31,661 bases of DNA from an uncultured Candidatus Saccharibacteria bacterium (GTDB lineage Bacteria > Patescibacteriota > Minisyncoccia > Phycocordibacterales > CSBR16-119). Numbering within the stretch: the first letter of the stretch is position 1; each line of letters starts with the position of its first letter. Both the position numbers and the translations under genes were made by a program. The stretch is taken from positions 1 through 31,661 of the forward strand of contig CAZJZW010000002.1 of NCBI GenBank assembly GCA_964550665.1, read 5' to 3'. The notes below the pieces were generated by a model. It searched no databases, had not been told where the DNA came from, and was given only the letters and a program-made list of their open reading frames with translations. This document shows positions 15,503 to 31,615 of the stretch, piece by piece.

Positions 15503-16075
15503 ATGATTGCTCACATCCAAGGAAAAATTTTAGAAAAAAATACTAAGTTTTTAGTTATTGAAGCTAATTCTGTCGGCTATCTTGTTTTCGTTTCGACTGG
15601 AACACTTTCCTCTTCCCCATCAATCGGAGAATATTTTTCTCTTTGGACATATCTAGCAGTCAGAGAAAACGCACTCGACCTTTATGGATTTACGACGATC
15701 GATGAGAAAAATTTCTTTGAACTTTTGATTAGCGTTTCAGGTATCGGTCCGAAGAATGCTCTCTCGATACTTTCTATCGCCCCGATGGAAACTTTGAAAA
15801 AAGCTATCGCAACCGGTGACATGTCATACATGACAAAAGTTTCTGGTATCGGCAAAAAAACTGCAGAGAAAATCGTCGTCGAACTTCGAGACAAACTCGC
15901 AAGTCTCGGGCACAACGATGAGACTGGATCGCTCCGTGGTGAAGCTGATGTGATCTTAGCTCTCATCTCTTTGGGTTACAGCCAAAGTGAAGCGAGAAAT
16001 GCGACAAAGGAAATAGACCACACACTTTCAACAAATGAAAAAATAAAAGAGGCTTTGAAGATTCTAGGGAAATAG
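15503..16075 (+). CDS. ruvA: Holliday junction branch migration protein RuvA
   Basis: MIAHIQG, GYLV, VRENALDLYGF, VSGIGPKNAL, VSGIGKKTAEKIVVELRDK and ALISLGYS. Confidence 0.97.
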   Translation: MIAHIQGKILEKNTKFLVIEANSVGYLVFVSTGTLSSSPSIGEYFSLWTYLAVRENALDLYGFTTIDEKNFFELLISVSGIGPKNALSILSIAPMETLKKAIATGDMSYMTKVSGIGKKTAEKIVVELRDKLASLGHNDETGSLRGEADVILALISLGYSQSEARNATKEIDHTLSTNEKIKEALKILGK

Positions 16076-25931: not shown

Positions 25932-27932
25932 TTAGCGACGCTTTGGGCCAGAATTTGACTGACGCATGGGCTTCGCTTGAAGCTGTTGTGGTGCTGACCT
26001 CATCGGTTTAGCACTCCTTTGTTGTGTCCTTTGTGGAACACTGACGTTTGGAGCACCTCCGCGCTGTGACCCTCGCTGTTGTATCTGCGGCTTTGAACCA
26101 CCTCCTCGATTAACGTTTCCACCATTCCTTTGTGAAGGTTTCGTGTTTCCGTAAACCGAAGTGTTGTTCATACTTCCCTGGTTACGATTTGGCTTAGTTT
26201 GCACCCTATTACTAGAGACGCTCACTTGACCATTTCTATTACCGCGAGAAGGTGTGTTAGCCACACGACCAGAACTCATACCGCTACCAGGTTTTGTGTT
26301 CGGTGCACTTTGCACTGAATTGTTTCCCTGGCGACGATTACTGCTAGTCGAAGCGAACTCATTGTTGCTATTTCCAGCAGGTTTGACCGGCTTGGTAGCA
26401 CCATGAGAACGCGGAAGAGTGACACTACTCCTATCATCATTTACTGGCTTGGCTCCACTATTACTAGCGGTGCGTCCACCAATTGTTGATGAATGAGAAG
26501 CAGGAAGCTTCAACAAAGGAATGTCACGACTTGCCATAGGCGGGTCGATCCGTCCTTCTTTAGTCTGTGGCGTTGTTTTTGAAGACGACGCCGTCAGATC
26601 TTTCGTTGGAGCAATATCCATCAAGCTTTCAGTCCGCAGGGACTTGTTACCAGAGGCGGGAACAGCGAAGGACTTCTCGTCAGCCGAAGCCAATTCGTAA
26701 TCCTGTTCTGTTTCTACAGCGGAGTTGTCAGTGACGACGTTGGATTTCCATACGCCGTAACCATTGTTATATCCACCACCATATCCTGCAGGACTCCAGC
26801 CAACACCAGAACCGAGCCAGTTGATACCGGTGATTCCGTTCGCTGTCCAAACAAATGATGTACTAGATCCACCGTAACCGTAGTTTGGCTGACAGAAGTT
26901 GTTATTGACATATCCACAGCCTGAGCTCCAACCGAAGTTGATACCGAAGCCAGCAGAGAAACCACAACCGCCATAGCCGTAGCCACCACCCCAACCACCT
27001 CCATACACAGGAGTGTAGTAAGGATAGTAAGTCGACGCCATTATAGGTGTTGTTACCAAACCCCAGCCACCATCGTAAAAACCATTGCGGGTTTTCCACG
27101 ACATATCGTTACGATAAGGCCAGCGTGAACGACGCCCGTCATATGCCACTTCATACATACCCGTTGTCGGATTGTAGAAACTGAGCACATCACGTTTTCC
27201 AAGGTTGTCCTTGCGCACAAGCTCTGGAGTATAAGTGCTGTCGGACTTCGTTGTGTCAGCCTTTGCAGATTTCTCCGCCCCAGTTGAACCAGCTGAAGCT
27301 GCAGCACCTCCTTCAACCTCTTCAGAGGGTACGAAGGATTTAAAGATGCGACTCGTTCCCACCTGATCGGACTTCGTTGTGTCAGCCTTTGCAGATTTCT
27401 CCGCCCCAGTTGAACCAGCTGAAGCTGCAGCACCTCCTTCAACCTCTTCAGAGGGTACGAAGGATTTAAAGATGCGACTCGTTCCCACCTGATTGGCTTG
27501 GAGCAAGAAACCAAGATCTCCTTCGTCCTCTGATGCAATGCGCACCCAGTTCGAAAGGTCCAAAATAGCATATTCCAGGATGGTATCCTGAAGCACTACC
27601 TCGGTCACAGTACCCGCAGAAGAGACTTCTGAAAGGGTGTGAGTTCCGGGTCCCACATTTGAGGAAAACCTCATTTCGGTGTTCTGCTCGGTCAACATCG
27701 ACTCGAACGCTTTCCCTTTCAGAGGGATTTTAGTTCCGTCGATTGCCAATGAGTTGGTGTATGCATATGCCTTGGATGTTTCCAATGCATGCTTGAATTC
27801 CTTGAGCATGACGTTCTTTTGTGCCTTGCTCTTGAATTCAATCGGTGTAACGGACTTGCGGTCCGATTGTTGCGCCGATACTGGCTTAGCCAGCATCATA
27901 AACGCGAAGAAAATGACAAGGAGCTGTTTCAT
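25932..27932 (-). CDS. Secreted low-complexity protein (666 aa; G/Y/W-rich middle, S/N/Q/R-rich tail)
   Basis: Signal peptide MKQLLVIFFAFMMLAKPVSA|QQ, own promoter and downstream hairpins; visibly more GC-rich than its neighbours. Confidence 0.8.
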   Translation of the reverse strand: MKQLLVIFFAFMMLAKPVSAQQSDRKSVTPIEFKSKAQKNVMLKEFKHALETSKAYAYTNSLAIDGTKIPLKGKAFESMLTEQNTEMRFSSNVGPGTHTLSEVSSAGTVTEVVLQDTILEYAILDLSNWVRIASEDEGDLGFLLQANQVGTSRIFKSFVPSEEVEGGAAASAGSTGAEKSAKADTTKSDQVGTSRIFKSFVPSEEVEGGAAASAGSTGAEKSAKADTTKSDSTYTPELVRKDNLGKRDVLSFYNPTTGMYEVAYDGRRSRWPYRNDMSWKTRNGFYDGGWGLVTTPIMASTYYPYYTPVYGGGWGGGYGYGGCGFSAGFGINFGWSSGCGYVNNNFCQPNYGYGGSSTSFVWTANGITGINWLGSGVGWSPAGYGGGYNNGYGVWKSNVVTDNSAVETEQDYELASADEKSFAVPASGNKSLRTESLMDIAPTKDLTASSSKTTPQTKEGRIDPPMASRDIPLLKLPASHSSTIGGRTASNSGAKPVNDDRSSVTLPRSHGATKPVKPAGNSNNEFASTSSNRRQGNNSVQSAPNTKPGSGMSSGRVANTPSRGNRNGQVSVSSNRVQTKPNRNQGSMNNTSVYGNTKPSQRNGGNVNRGGGSKPQIQQRGSQRGGAPNVSVPQRTQQRSAKPMRSAPQQLQAKPMRQSNSGPKRR
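27241..27492. repeat. Perfect 126-bp in-frame tandem duplication
   Basis: 27241-27366 equals 27367-27492, encoding QVGTSRIF...TTKSD twice. Confidence 0.95.
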
Positions 27933-28108: not shown

Positions 28109-29830
28109 ATGACGCTCTTATTTAACGAAGATAAACAACAAAAACAAATCCAGATTCTTCGTATTAACGAAGAAGAAGATTTGGCTAAAACTCTGGCCAG
28201 CACAAAATACCACATTCCTTACATAGACTTAACGAAAGTTGTGATTGAAAATGATGCACTTCAGACCGTACCAGAAGAAGAAGCCAGAGAAATCGAAGTC
28301 GCGCCTTTTAATATTGCTGCAAAAAAAGTTTTGATCGCTGTTCATGCTCCAGAGAGAATGGAAGTGATTAATCTTAAAAAAACACTCGAGCGAAAAGGCT
28401 ACCAGGTAATCTACTTCATGGCTTCCAAAAAAAGTTTAGAGAAAGTTTGGGATAGATACCGAGAAGTTTCTCAAGCGGAAAAATTAAAAGCAGGGAGCCT
28501 CAGTATTTCTGGAGAAACACTTTTAAAAACTGCAGAGAAAATAAAAAAACTTGAAGATATTGAAAAAGAAGTTCAAAATATTTCTGACACAACATCAACA
28601 CATAAAGTTTCGAAAATTATTGAAGTTATTTTCGCAGGAGCAATCGCTCTGAAAGCTTCTGATGTTCACATCGAGCCAGAAGAAGATCATGTTCAAGTGC
28701 GAATCAGACTCGATGGAATATTACATGAGGTTTTAAAACTCGATGAAAGAACTTACAACCTTATCAACTCAAGAATAAAATTAGTTTCAGGATTGAAGCT
28801 TTCAAAAAACCAAGCTCAAGATGGAAGATTTTCTATTTGGCTTAACGAATACGAAGTTTCGATGAGAACTTCTGTGATCCCTGGAGCGTACGGCGAAGGA
28901 ATCGTGATGCGACTTCTTAATCCTCAATCAATCATGGTTCCGATGGAAGAACTTGGTATTGAGAAAAAACTTTTTAGCATCATCGAACGTGAAATTGCAA
29001 AACCAAATGGACTTATTATCATCACTGGTCCGACAGGTTCAGGTAAAACAACAAGTCTTTATACTTTTCTTCAAAGAATATATTCTCCAGAAATTAAAAT
29101 CCTAACTATAGAAAACCCTGTTGAATATCACCTAGAAGGTATCACTCAAACACAAACCGATCATAAAAAAGGTTATGGATTCCTTGAAGGGCTTCGAAGC
29201 GCACTTCGACAAGACCCTGACGTTATCATGATCGGAGAAATCCGAGATGGCGAGACAGCTAAGATTGCGGTCGAGTCTTCTCTAACAGGACACATGGTGT
29301 TCTCGACACTTCACACCAACAACGCTGCTGGAGCTGTTCCACGACTTATTGATCTTGGAGTAAACCCAAAAATCCTAGCCTCTGCCTTATCTCTTTCTAT
29401 CGCTCAAAGACTCGTCAGAAAACTCTGCGTTCACTGCAAACAAAAAAGAGAAGTGACAAAAGAAGAAGAAGAAATTATCCGAAAAGTTTTAGTTGGCGCA
29501 CAAACTCTCGGAAAAGATTTAGCTTCTTATGGAGTAAAAGCAGATCAGAAAATAGAACTTTGGAAACCGGTTGGATGTGAAAAATGTAACAATATCGGAT
29601 ACAAAGGACGTATAGGTATTTTTGAAGCGATCTTATCTGACGACGCTATCATTGACGTCATGCCGATGAATCCAAGTGAAGACGAAATTAAAGCAATCGC
29701 AAACAAACAAGGAATACTTGATATGAAAGAAGATGGTTTGGTGAAAGCTGTAGCGGGTATCACGACAGTCGAAGAGGTGAAGAAGGCAGTAGATATTTAT
29801 GAAGAGATTGAAGTAGTAAAAGAGGCGTAA
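28109..29830 (+). CDS. PilB/GspE-family type IV pilus or secretion assembly ATPase
   Basis: ASDVHIEP, QDGRF, Walker A GPTGSGKTT, LRQDPDVIMIGEIRD, TGHMVFSTLHTN, and a Cys tetrad CVHC...CEKC; N-terminal MshEN/N1D-like region. Confidence 0.95.
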   Translation: MTLLFNEDKQQKQIQILRINEEEDLAKTLASTKYHIPYIDLTKVVIENDALQTVPEEEAREIEVAPFNIAAKKVLIAVHAPERMEVINLKKTLERKGYQVIYFMASKKSLEKVWDRYREVSQAEKLKAGSLSISGETLLKTAEKIKKLEDIEKEVQNISDTTSTHKVSKIIEVIFAGAIALKASDVHIEPEEDHVQVRIRLDGILHEVLKLDERTYNLINSRIKLVSGLKLSKNQAQDGRFSIWLNEYEVSMRTSVIPGAYGEGIVMRLLNPQSIMVPMEELGIEKKLFSIIEREIAKPNGLIIITGPTGSGKTTSLYTFLQRIYSPEIKILTIENPVEYHLEGITQTQTDHKKGYGFLEGLRSALRQDPDVIMIGEIRDGETAKIAVESSLTGHMVFSTLHTNNAAGAVPRLIDLGVNPKILASALSLSIAQRLVRKLCVHCKQKREVTKEEEEIIRKVLVGAQTLGKDLASYGVKADQKIELWKPVGCEKCNNIGYKGRIGIFEAILSDDAIIDVMPMNPSEDEIKAIANKQGILDMKEDGLVKAVAGITTVEEVKKAVDIYEEIEVVKEA

Positions 29831-29831
29831 A

Positions 29832-29864
29832 ACAAAAGCCCGGCGCTTCGCGCCGGGCTTTTGT
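29832..29864. terminator. Palindromic terminator, copy 2
   Basis: acaaaagcccggcgc-ttc-gcgccgggcttttgt. Confidence 0.8.
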
Positions 29865-29867
29865 TTT

Positions 29868-30114
29868 TAAACTTTAAAAAGATCCACAAACCTCCAAATA
29901 ATCCTTTTTCTTCCAAGGAAGAAAAGTAATAAAATCTCAAAGGATAGCCGCAGTAACTCCGCCGAAGCGGTAACCATTGCGTCCTTATTAAAGTTATAGA
30001 GACAGAGCCTGATTACTTAGAGGTTTCTAAACCCTTATCAAAGTGGGATGTTAATATATCACGAGCACAATTCTTGTAAAGTACTCTTGTCAGACGGCGA
30101 TAAAATAAAGTTCT
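29868..30114 (-). ncRNA. Candidate structured non-coding RNA
   Basis: 16-bp long-range stem, C(UUCG)G-capped apical stem, and further hairpins whose G-U pairs work only on the minus strand; boundaries approximate. Confidence 0.5.
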
Positions 30115-30231
30115 TACATTGCTGTAAAAACCTGAAATATCCTTATGTTTAAACAAAAAATCACAAAAGTGATATAATGTTTACAACGTCTTTAATTAAC
30201 TACTTTTAAAGATTAGCATAAAAAAACTAAT

Positions 30232-31224
30232 ATGTCAAGCGATACACCTAAAAATGAAGAAATAAAGAATGACAACTTTTTAGATAACACATTGCGACCT
30301 CGTACATGGGACGAGTATATTGGTCAAGAAAAAATCAAACAAAACTTAAAAATTTTAATCCAAGCAGCAGAAGAACGTAATCACGTTCCTGAACATATTC
30401 TTTTTCACGGACCTCCTGGACTTGGAAAAACTACTCTTGCCCACCTGATCGCCAAAGAATCGGGTAAACAAATGAAAATAACATCAGGTCCTGCGATAGA
30501 GAAAGTTGGCGACCTCGCATCAGTCCTGACAAACCTCGCGCCTGGTGATATTTTATTTATCGACGAGATCCACCGACTAAATAAAATGGTAGAAGAGATA
30601 CTTTACCCTGCGATGGAGTCAGGAGTACTCGATATTATCATCGGTAAGGGCCCATCGGCTAGAACCATCCAACTCGACCTTCCACCTTTTACTCTTATCG
30701 CCGCAACGACTCGTCCAGCGCTCATCTCTTCCCCGCTTCGGTCACGCTTCTCTGGTGGAGTTCACCGGCTTGAATTTTACACTCACGAAGAAATGAAAGA
30801 AATTGTAAAACGTGCAAGTCGTCTTTTAGGAACAGAAGCTGACACAGGAGCGGTTGAAGAGATAGCGAAACGTTCTCGATTTACACCAAGAACGTCAAAC
30901 TATTTCTTGAAACGTGCTCGAGACTACGCTCAAATACACAAAGAAGATCTGACCAAAGAAAACGTACAGAAAGCACTGGAACTTTTAGGAGTAGACGAGC
31001 TTGGACTTTTTGAATCAGACAGAGCGGTACTCCGAACAATCATTGAAAAATTCAACGGTGGGCCGGTGGGCCTCGGAACTCTGGCTGCCGCGACAAGCGA
31101 AGAAGAAGCAACGATAGAAGAAGTGATCGAGCCATATTTACTTCGGCTTGGACTTCTTGAAAGAACTCCTCGCGGACGAACAGCAACAGAAAAAGCTTAT
31201 GAGCATTTAGGAATTAGTAGGTAG
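30232..31224 (+). CDS. ruvB: Holliday junction branch migration helicase RuvB
   Basis: LRPRTWDEYIGQ, GPPGLGKTT, FIDEIHRL, LYPAME, ATTR, LRSRF and LERTPRGR. Confidence 0.98.
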   Translation: MSSDTPKNEEIKNDNFLDNTLRPRTWDEYIGQEKIKQNLKILIQAAEERNHVPEHILFHGPPGLGKTTLAHLIAKESGKQMKITSGPAIEKVGDLASVLTNLAPGDILFIDEIHRLNKMVEEILYPAMESGVLDIIIGKGPSARTIQLDLPPFTLIAATTRPALISSPLRSRFSGGVHRLEFYTHEEMKEIVKRASRLLGTEADTGAVEEIAKRSRFTPRTSNYFLKRARDYAQIHKEDLTKENVQKALELLGVDELGLFESDRAVLRTIIEKFNGGPVGLGTLAAATSEEEATIEEVIEPYLLRLGLLERTPRGRTATEKAYEHLGISR

Positions 31225-31255: not shown

Positions 31256-31615
31256 ATGCAATCATATAAAGATTTACAAGTTTGGAATAGATCGATGGCG
31301 CTTGTTAAAGATATCTATTCCCTAACAAATAAATTTCCTTCTTCTGAACGATTCGGACTAACAAGCCAAATGCAGAGAAGCGCCGTCTCGATTCCATCTA
31401 ATATCGCAGAAGGTAGATTACGGTCCGGAGAGAAAAGTTTTATTCAATTTCTCCTTATTGCTCTCGGCTCATGCGCAGAGTTACAAACGCAGATTATAAT
31501 TGCAAGAGAAATAGGATATAGTAAAGACCTTGAAACTAAAAAGATCGAAGAAGAAATTGAAGAGATTATGAAAATGATTAATAGTTTAATCAAGAAGCTA
31601 AAGGCCAATGGCTAA
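31256..31615 (+). CDS. Four-helix-bundle protein (TIGR02436 / 23S rRNA IVP / Avd-like)
   Basis: SYKDLQVWNRSMALV..IY.LT.KFP.SERFGLTSQMQRSAVSIPSNIAEG and ALGSCAELQTQ. Confidence 0.95.
   Translation: MQSYKDLQVWNRSMALVKDIYSLTNKFPSSERFGLTSQMQRSAVSIPSNIAEGRLRSGEKSFIQFLLIALGSCAELQTQIIIAREIGYSKDLETKKIEEEIEEIMKMINSLIKKLKANG

Follow-up and report, generated by a model that had tools for sequence, protein, structure and literature searches.

The window analysed here is a stretch of 31,661 nucleotides from an uncultured Candidatus Saccharibacteria bacterium. Two of its plus-strand genes, one for a PilB-type ATPase and the other ruvB, are separated by a spacer (29831-30231) that holds an RNA gene on the minus strand, at 29872-30046. 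We refer to its product as the pilB-ruvB RNA. The features of the locus, from low to high coordinates and with the evidence for each in brackets, are as follows.

28109-29830, plus strand: gene for a T2SSE/PilB-type ATPase with an MshEN domain, the convergent neighbour (Pfam)
29832-29864, both strands: candidate GC-rich bidirectional intrinsic terminator, common to the RNA and the PilB-like gene (sequence reading)
29877-29903, minus strand: P1, 3' strand, ending in a U run at 29880-29876 (RNAalifold consensus; homologue comparison)
29904-29926, minus strand: P4 hairpin, CUUUUCUUCC-UUGG-AAGAAAAAG, with a conserved basal CUUUU/AAAAG (5/5 basal pairs covary class-wide)
29929-29938, minus strand: P2, 3' strand, GA ... 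UUAU, followed by the junction UA at 29928-29927 (alignments)
29941-29958, minus strand: P3 core, 3' strand, (AGUU)ACUG, four variable nucleotides, UAUCCU (alignments)
29959-29970, minus strand: apical hairpin CCGC-UUCG-GCGG, variable (5/5 pairs covary)
29971-29986, minus strand: P3 core, 5' strand, AAGGA, a bulged C, four variable nucleotides, UGGU(UA) (96 sequences)
29991-29997, minus strand: P2, 5' strand, AUAA plus UU (pairs with 29929-29938)
29999-30009, minus strand: P1a, a short hairpin, variable, within the 5' strand of the junction (alignments; local covariation in a mutual-information scan)
30011-30037, minus strand: P1, 5' strand of the closing helix, with a sequence-conserved junction-proximal part at 30027-30011, AACCUCUAAGUAAUC (RNAalifold)
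30053-30061, minus strand: predicted extended -10 box TGaTATATT, 16-nt spacer (consensus scan and conservation)
30075-30080, minus strand: predicted -35 box TTTACA (consensus scan; TTTACA or TTGACA in 17 family homologues, TTGACA at most loci of the order and the class)
30232-31224, plus strand: ruvB, the divergent neighbour (Pfam), with its own predicted promoter at 30150-30178 (consensus scan)

Further genes surround this locus. Directly after ruvB lies a gene for a 119-aa protein of the 23S_rRNA_IVP/bAvd-like four-helix-bundle type (31256-31615, plus strand; Pfam), and a 666-aa ORF without any Pfam match at E<=0.001 is divergent from the PilB-like gene (25932-27932, minus strand). The ruvA gene (RuvA_N domain, 15503-15688, plus strand) is found about 15 kb from ruvB, and the usual ruvAB operon is therefore split in this genome.

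The minus-strand promoter, of the extended -10 sigma-70 type (TTTACA-16-TATATT with an upstream TG, 30080-30053), was called by a consensus scan and is kept in 17/17 family homologues, and most homologues in the order and the class carry TTGACA-17-TGnTAnnnT in a similar place. The initial annotation, which was made from the window sequence alone, had seen no convincing promoter, and has to be revised on this point. The promoter is strong and apparently constitutive, and its spacing would place the transcription start at about 30046. A 5' hairpin (gagtac/gtgctc) that had been counted as part of the structure lies upstream of this likely start and outside the RNA; it straddles the promoter, with the -35 box in its loop.

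At the other end, the closing helix P1 together with the U run looks like a conserved 3' end or terminator, and in genus g4 the 3' end of the RNA is GGGCUUUUUU, with no further hairpin after it. The bidirectional terminator previously proposed at 29832-29864 is present in the sequence; it rests on sequence reading, and the consensus scan of 29700-30300 called no terminator. From these predicted ends the RNA would be about 175 nt long, or about 215 nt if its 3' end were at the terminator. We agree with the earlier view that the region contains no credible ORF. In several lineages (loci L047, L053, L057, L061, L065 and L066) a hairpin and then a U run are found between the RNA promoter and P1, an arrangement reminiscent of an attenuator or of a stem-loop protecting the 5' end. 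The window locus has no such hairpin between promoter and P1.

The initial annotation had proposed a highly structured RNA on the minus strand, and folding of both strands bears this out. The minus strand of 29868-30114 reached -67.4 kcal/mol in RNAfold, with z = -3.57 and 0/200 shuffles as good, and thus folds far better than its shuffles, and the plus strand gave z = -2.27. Covariance-model scores are 100+ bits in the sense direction versus 25-37 bits in the antisense direction. Several G-U pairs are invariant in the family alignment and near-invariant order-wide, and would be A-C on the plus strand; these pairs therefore fix the minus strand as the RNA strand, and the asymmetry between G-U and A-C that had been taken as a mark of the strand holds in the homologues. 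Folding z-score, promoter and covariation all agree on a structured RNA from the minus strand.

The conserved fold, as predicted from the alignments, brings P1, P1a, P2/P3 and P4 together in a compact four-way junction. The closing helix P1 comprises about 27 bp, of which the 12-15 bp nearest to the junction are conserved in sequence too, and 15/17 pairs of its core covary across the class. It includes the 16-bp long-range helix (30026-30011 with 29903-29888) that had been noticed at the outset. P1a is weak in the window copy, longer in other lineages and missing in a few. All 4+2 pairs of P2 show double compensatory changes. Here the earlier reading needed correction, since the tctc/gaga pairing at the base of the apical stem is not in the conserved register; the covarying helix is formed by AUAA at 29997-29994 with UUAU at 29932-29929.

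The most constant feature is the P3 core, AGGAC-N4-UGGU ... CUG-N4-UAUCC, in which AGGA/UCCU, with a C opposite UA, is followed by a covarying spacer of 2-4 bp and then by UGGU/ACUG. Among 96 sequences AGGAC and UGG are invariant or almost so, and the tandem U-G/G-U is found in 32-33 of the 34 order-wide sequences. Beyond the core, the apical hairpin with its C(UUCG)G cap (29970-29959) is present in the window as first described, and is missing in some lineages (L050, L061-L063). P4 (29926-29904), which had been recognized as a side hairpin, is linked to P1 by 0-1 nt, and the junction strand ahead of it carries a near-constant UA. A mutual-information scan of the 96 sequences picked up only the known helices, P1a and an extension pair of P4, with no pseudoknot or further long-range tertiary pairs.

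Homologues keep the pairing at every level examined, in line with what the initial annotation expected of a genuine structure. At the family level an independent MAFFT/RNAalifold alignment gave 54 pairs, and double compensatory changes were seen in 18 of these. The order- and class-wide alignments were fitted to the covariance model, which favours its structure: 96% of the cells were paired among 34 order-wide sequences (32/44 pairs with double changes) and 91% among 36 class-wide sequences (36/44 pairs), with slid-partner controls at 41-52% and 39-52% paired, respectively, and 0/500 shuffles reaching the observed values in either set. Independent MAFFT/RNAalifold alignment yielded identical helices.

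The distribution of the RNA was followed with BLAST and with three covariance models, one of the RNA core (R1), one built on order-wide sequences (R2) and one class-wide (R3). In BLAST searches, 16 relatives from the family each yielded a single-copy homologue, and the conserved block was exactly 30026-29888. R1 found one full-length copy in 103/151 genomes of the order, which belongs to the Parcubacteria/Paceibacteria (CPR), and R2 found the RNA in 139/151 (138/150 high-quality genomes, or 92%; 116/127 genera) and in 30 further genomes from other orders of the class. In five more genomes of the class, which had no filtered R2 match, pilB and ruvB are still neighbours; in four of the five the pilB-ruvB spacer was the best match of the locus in unfiltered R2 searches, in the antisense orientation (31.2, 29.9, 17.5 and 14.5 bits), and R3 gives the copy in G214 40 bits. 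Divergent copies of the RNA occupy this spacer in additional orders. When one genome from each prokaryotic species was scanned for the exact pattern, at least 118 contigs matched, two evident chance matches among them. Among the matches listed, the contig titles include Paceibacterota, Parcubacteria, Minisyncoccia, Nomura-, Kaiser-, Campbell- and Taylorbacteria, and 96 of 100 contigs tested were confirmed by R2 (E<=1e-8, the calibration of the covariance-model E-values being rough).

The general pattern is thus one copy per genome at a single syntenic site in more than 130 genera, with a paralogue in G038 and a tandem copy in G069 as exceptions. The G038 paralogue is divergent (L266:2513-2651; C9:70812-70950); a GAF-domain gene lies immediately downstream of it, with YqeY and rmuC, a recombination gene, close by. 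The tandem duplicate in G069 (C1:65122-65481) is inside the pilB-ruvB spacer. No second copy of the conserved RNA segments, and no complementary site for them, was found in the window genome.

Outside the class the RNA apparently occurs once. R3 detected a single relative in G190, from another class of the phylum (L265:1480-1720), which is rod-like and has no Rfam match. It keeps the long P1 and the exact core AGGAC-N4-UGGUU...ACUG-N4-UAUCCU, has its own promoter (TTGACA-17-TGATATATT), is without P1a and P4, and is not beside ruvB or pilB. Since this rod keeps only P1 and the P3 module, P1 plus P3 would constitute the functional core. The relative is flanked by a VanW-like gene and, 880 nt off, by a fragment of an IS110-family transposase, with two hairpin repeats of about 50 nt between, and at L265:1640-1690 there is a hairpin and U run like that upstream of the RNA core in the L047 group.

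The initial annotation had left the family unidentified, and Rfam likewise holds no family that matches the RNA. At gathering thresholds Rfam 15 returned five tRNAs only for the window, and a permissive scan of 29780-30280 (501 nt) and of 20 homologue loci gave weak, terminator-driven matches only. Nor did we find a published description of the RNA in the literature on SRP RNA, 6S RNA and the structured RNAs of Parcubacteria and CPR. RNase P RNA, tmRNA and 5S rRNA were rejected as identities, since each of the three has its own locus elsewhere that scores above the Rfam cut-offs (C34:3136-3483, C17:10788-11164 and C7:28045-28150, respectively).

We consider that the spacer carries a gene, single-copy and transcribed on its own, whose product is a structured RNA of about 175 nt that comes from an uncatalogued family and most likely acts in trans by binding protein; to this reading as a whole we give a probability of roughly 0.55. 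The narrower statement, that the RNA gene is real, belongs to a new family and encodes neither 6S nor SRP RNA, we make with high confidence. The alternatives concern mainly what the RNA does.

A role as a local regulator, in which strong convergent or divergent transcription of the RNA, or its pairing with transcripts that read through from pilB into ruvB, would uncouple or tune the expression of pilB and ruvB, is unlikely, even if it is suggested by the position of the gene. Place and orientation between two co-directional genes are nearly invariant class-wide: among 61 loci examined the PilB-like gene is convergent and downstream in 59 and ruvB divergent and upstream in 57, most exceptions being loci that end at contig ends, and in essentially every genome with enough flank the RNA is antisense between the two genes. 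In many genomes the RNA promoter is at most about 100 nt from the ruvB reading frame, and the terminator is common to the RNA and pilB. However, an antisense or interference role requires no four-way junction, no invariant loops and no 30+ compensatory pairs, the G038 paralogue and the G190 relative are found in unrelated contexts, and about 70 bp separate the promoters of the RNA and ruvB in the window genome, where the RNA overlaps neither gene. A cis-regulatory leader or riboswitch was rejected separately, because all that lies downstream on the RNA strand is the antisense of the pilB 3' end.

The closing stem, bubble and apical stem had initially been compared to the layout of 6S RNA. There are indeed similarities to 6S RNA (SsrS; RF00013, RF01685), which likewise stands alone, measures about 150-200 nt, is driven by a strong sigma-70 promoter and usually occurs in one copy per genome, and in which a long closing helix made from the 5' and 3' ends leads to an inner irregular arm. 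The central bubble of 6S RNA is open, though, whereas the pilB-ruvB RNA has a four-way junction that is nearly all paired: its junction strands form the hairpins P1a and P4, with 0-3 free nucleotides left, and consequently no open bubble of the 6S type. A 6S-type release switch, with the strand before P4 pairing with either strand of P1, was dropped because this strand is only 2-3 nt long once P2 is correctly placed.

The 6S model RF00013 gave no match at E<=10 in the 501-nt search, none in the whole genome and none over the RNA in the 20 homologue loci, whereas scores of 23-73 bits are reached by the phylum's true 6S RNAs. The model matches 19/151 phylum genomes and 10/151 class genomes. All class matches inspected carry GGGAGYC...CACCCACYU, and 0/19 of the phylum-sample matches lie beside ruvB or pilB. 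The signature GGGAGC/CACCCACCU, kept by the true 6S RNAs of the class, is absent from the pilB-ruvB RNA.

A search with this signature did detect a separate 6S RNA, compact at about 140 nt, in the window genome (G000), outside the window at C17:861-1001 (L246:262-402). It carries GGGAGC...GCACCCACCU, also written GGGAGC...GCACCCACCUAGG, and folds (z = -3.9) into a closing stem, an open 5' bubble strand of 16 nt, a GGGAGC/GCACCC inner stem and a 3' bubble hairpin. It is conserved as a single copy in genera g1 and g4, with 12 compensatory pairs, and aligns with the 6S RNA of G357 and with weak Rfam 6S matches elsewhere in the class; RF00013 itself gives it no score. Standard Rfam-based annotation thus misses both this compact 6S RNA and the pilB-ruvB RNA of these organisms. 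The two RNAs occur together not only in G000 and its family, but also in G357, with a full-signature compact 6S and a pilB-ruvB RNA at 104.7 bits, in G326, where the 6S RNA is above the Rfam cut-off, and in G365, G337 and G214. The compact 6S in the same genome, the co-occurrence in relatives and the lack of bubble and signature together rule out that the pilB-ruvB RNA is the 6S RNA of these organisms.

Two 6S RNAs occur in some bacteria, and the pilB-ruvB RNA might accordingly be a second, highly divergent RNA of the 6S/Ms1 type that binds RNA polymerase, with P1 as a mimic of downstream DNA and the junction as the bubble. Its size, the way closing stem, junction and inner arm are proportioned, and the near-constant UA in the junction strand before P4 speak for this. 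Against it stand the silence of the Rfam 6S model, the occupied junction, the absent signature and the co-occurrence with 6S RNA described above, and we regard such a second 6S RNA as improbable.

Equally improbable in our judgement is a trans-acting ligand-sensing or catalytic RNA, in which the junction fold would provide the pocket or active site. The compact multi-helix junction and the invariant nucleotides in small internal loops would suit such a role, as would the likely coaxial stack of P1 and P4, given their 0-1 nt linker, onto which the long arm could dock. On the other hand, no pseudoknot or tertiary pair is supported by covariation, there is no downstream gene on the same strand to control, and no ribozyme or riboswitch model matches.

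That the locus is a repeat, a remnant of a MITE/REP mobile element, a plus-strand leader of ruvB or a chance fold is very hard to sustain. The P1 strands do resemble inverted repeats about 110 nt apart, and the G190 relative lies 880 nt from the IS110-family transposase fragment. Yet more than 130 genera share a single copy per genome in the same syntenic place, which is not what a mobile remnant would leave, the internal helices covary and are preceded by their own promoter, the G-U pairs would become A-C mismatches in a plus-strand leader, and viral copies were not found. A phage origin was rejected on the same ground, the exact pattern being without matches in IMG/VR, and an IS110 bridge RNA was rejected as well, with no transposase near any Paceibacteria copy and nothing in Rfam.

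The signal recognition particle was considered because the small and large bacterial SRP RNA models of Rfam (RF00169, RF01854) returned no match for the window genome, for 21 relatives or for a set of 121 phylum genomes, which leaves one housekeeping RNA unaccounted for. The protein partners are missing too: the window genome has no match to the SRP54 M domain (PF02978) or to the SRP54-type GTPase (PF00448), and 30 relatives gave only P-loop fragments of 26-41 profile positions for the latter, in 6/30, while 14/14 control genomes score. The two subunits of the SRP are missing from many CPR bacteria according to the Vampirococcus paper (PMC8080830); the loss of Ffh and FtsY, already known for many CPR, looks complete in the present order, as judged from profile searches of 31 genomes. 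The absence of Ffh and FtsY means that there is no SRP for the pilB-ruvB RNA to serve. A regular-expression search of the genome for the SRP helix-8 motif gave one unconvincing match, on C9, and the GNRA loop and the symmetric and asymmetric loop motifs of SRP RNA are absent from the pilB-ruvB RNA.

In overall build the RNA shares with bacterial SRP (4.5S) RNA and Y RNAs a long helix closed by both ends and small, sequence-invariant internal loops close to the distal end of an arm, which are likely protein-binding sites. It differs from them in that no SRP proteins occur here and that it has neither SRP or Y RNA motifs nor a match in Rfam. With the partners missing, no helix-8 motifs, and an apical hairpin that is variable and sometimes missing, the notion that the RNA is a very divergent form of the missing SRP (4.5S) RNA can be put aside almost entirely.

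We therefore return to an RNA that works in trans. Sequence conservation sits inside helices and small internal loops and not in long single-stranded seeds; together with the strong, apparently constitutive promoter, the single copy in nearly all of these very small genomes, the lack of complementary targets and the dispensable peripheral hairpins, this is best accommodated by a protein-bound RNA. The pilB-ruvB RNA would then be either the RNA part of a ribonucleoprotein (RNP) or an RNA that sequesters a protein. The recognition surface would be formed by the invariant P3 module and the stack of P1 and P4, and the variable P1a and apical hairpins may be dispensable decoration. Being argued by exclusion, action through protein binding is put forward tentatively.

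One step further, the RNA could be the RNA subunit of an undescribed housekeeping RNP that is universal in Paceibacteria/Parcubacteria, and its strict linkage, head-to-head with ruvB and back-to-back with the gene for the pilus or DNA-uptake ATPase, might point to a part in recombination or in the uptake of DNA; we offer this as a possibility that is more speculative than protein binding as such. Such an RNP might, for example, include the RNA as a mimic of branched nucleic acids or as a cofactor for junction-processing proteins. A four-arm mimic of the Holliday junction for RuvAB, with RuvA encoded elsewhere in the window, appears doubtful, because P1a is optional.

Orphan structured RNAs that are specific to a lineage have been discovered by comparative genomics before, such as the raiA motif RNA, OLE and the '-1' RNAs named after phyla (Weinberg et al.). 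The pilB-ruvB RNA resembles them in being conserved, covarying and stand-alone, in its occurrence in one large lineage and in its recurrent gene neighbourhood. It differs in having no match in Rfam 15, in its confinement to Parcubacteria and in a far stricter synteny than such RNAs usually show.

Parcubacteria belong to the most abundant bacteria and also to the least understood; their genomes, at 0.5-1 Mb, retain little beyond the essentials, and the SRP system is missing from them as well. It is very unlikely that a strongly promoted single-copy RNA, retained at a fixed site in 92% of the high-quality genomes of an order with more than 120 genera, and also outside that order, is dispensable to them. 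The pilB-ruvB RNA joins a very short list of non-coding RNAs that are near-universal within a major bacterial lineage, and its conserved core of 140 nt, with a defined motif, provides a handle for pull-downs, structural work and annotation. If the RNA is indeed part of a housekeeping RNP of the largest CPR class, its standing there would be comparable to that of 6S, SRP and RNase P RNA elsewhere.
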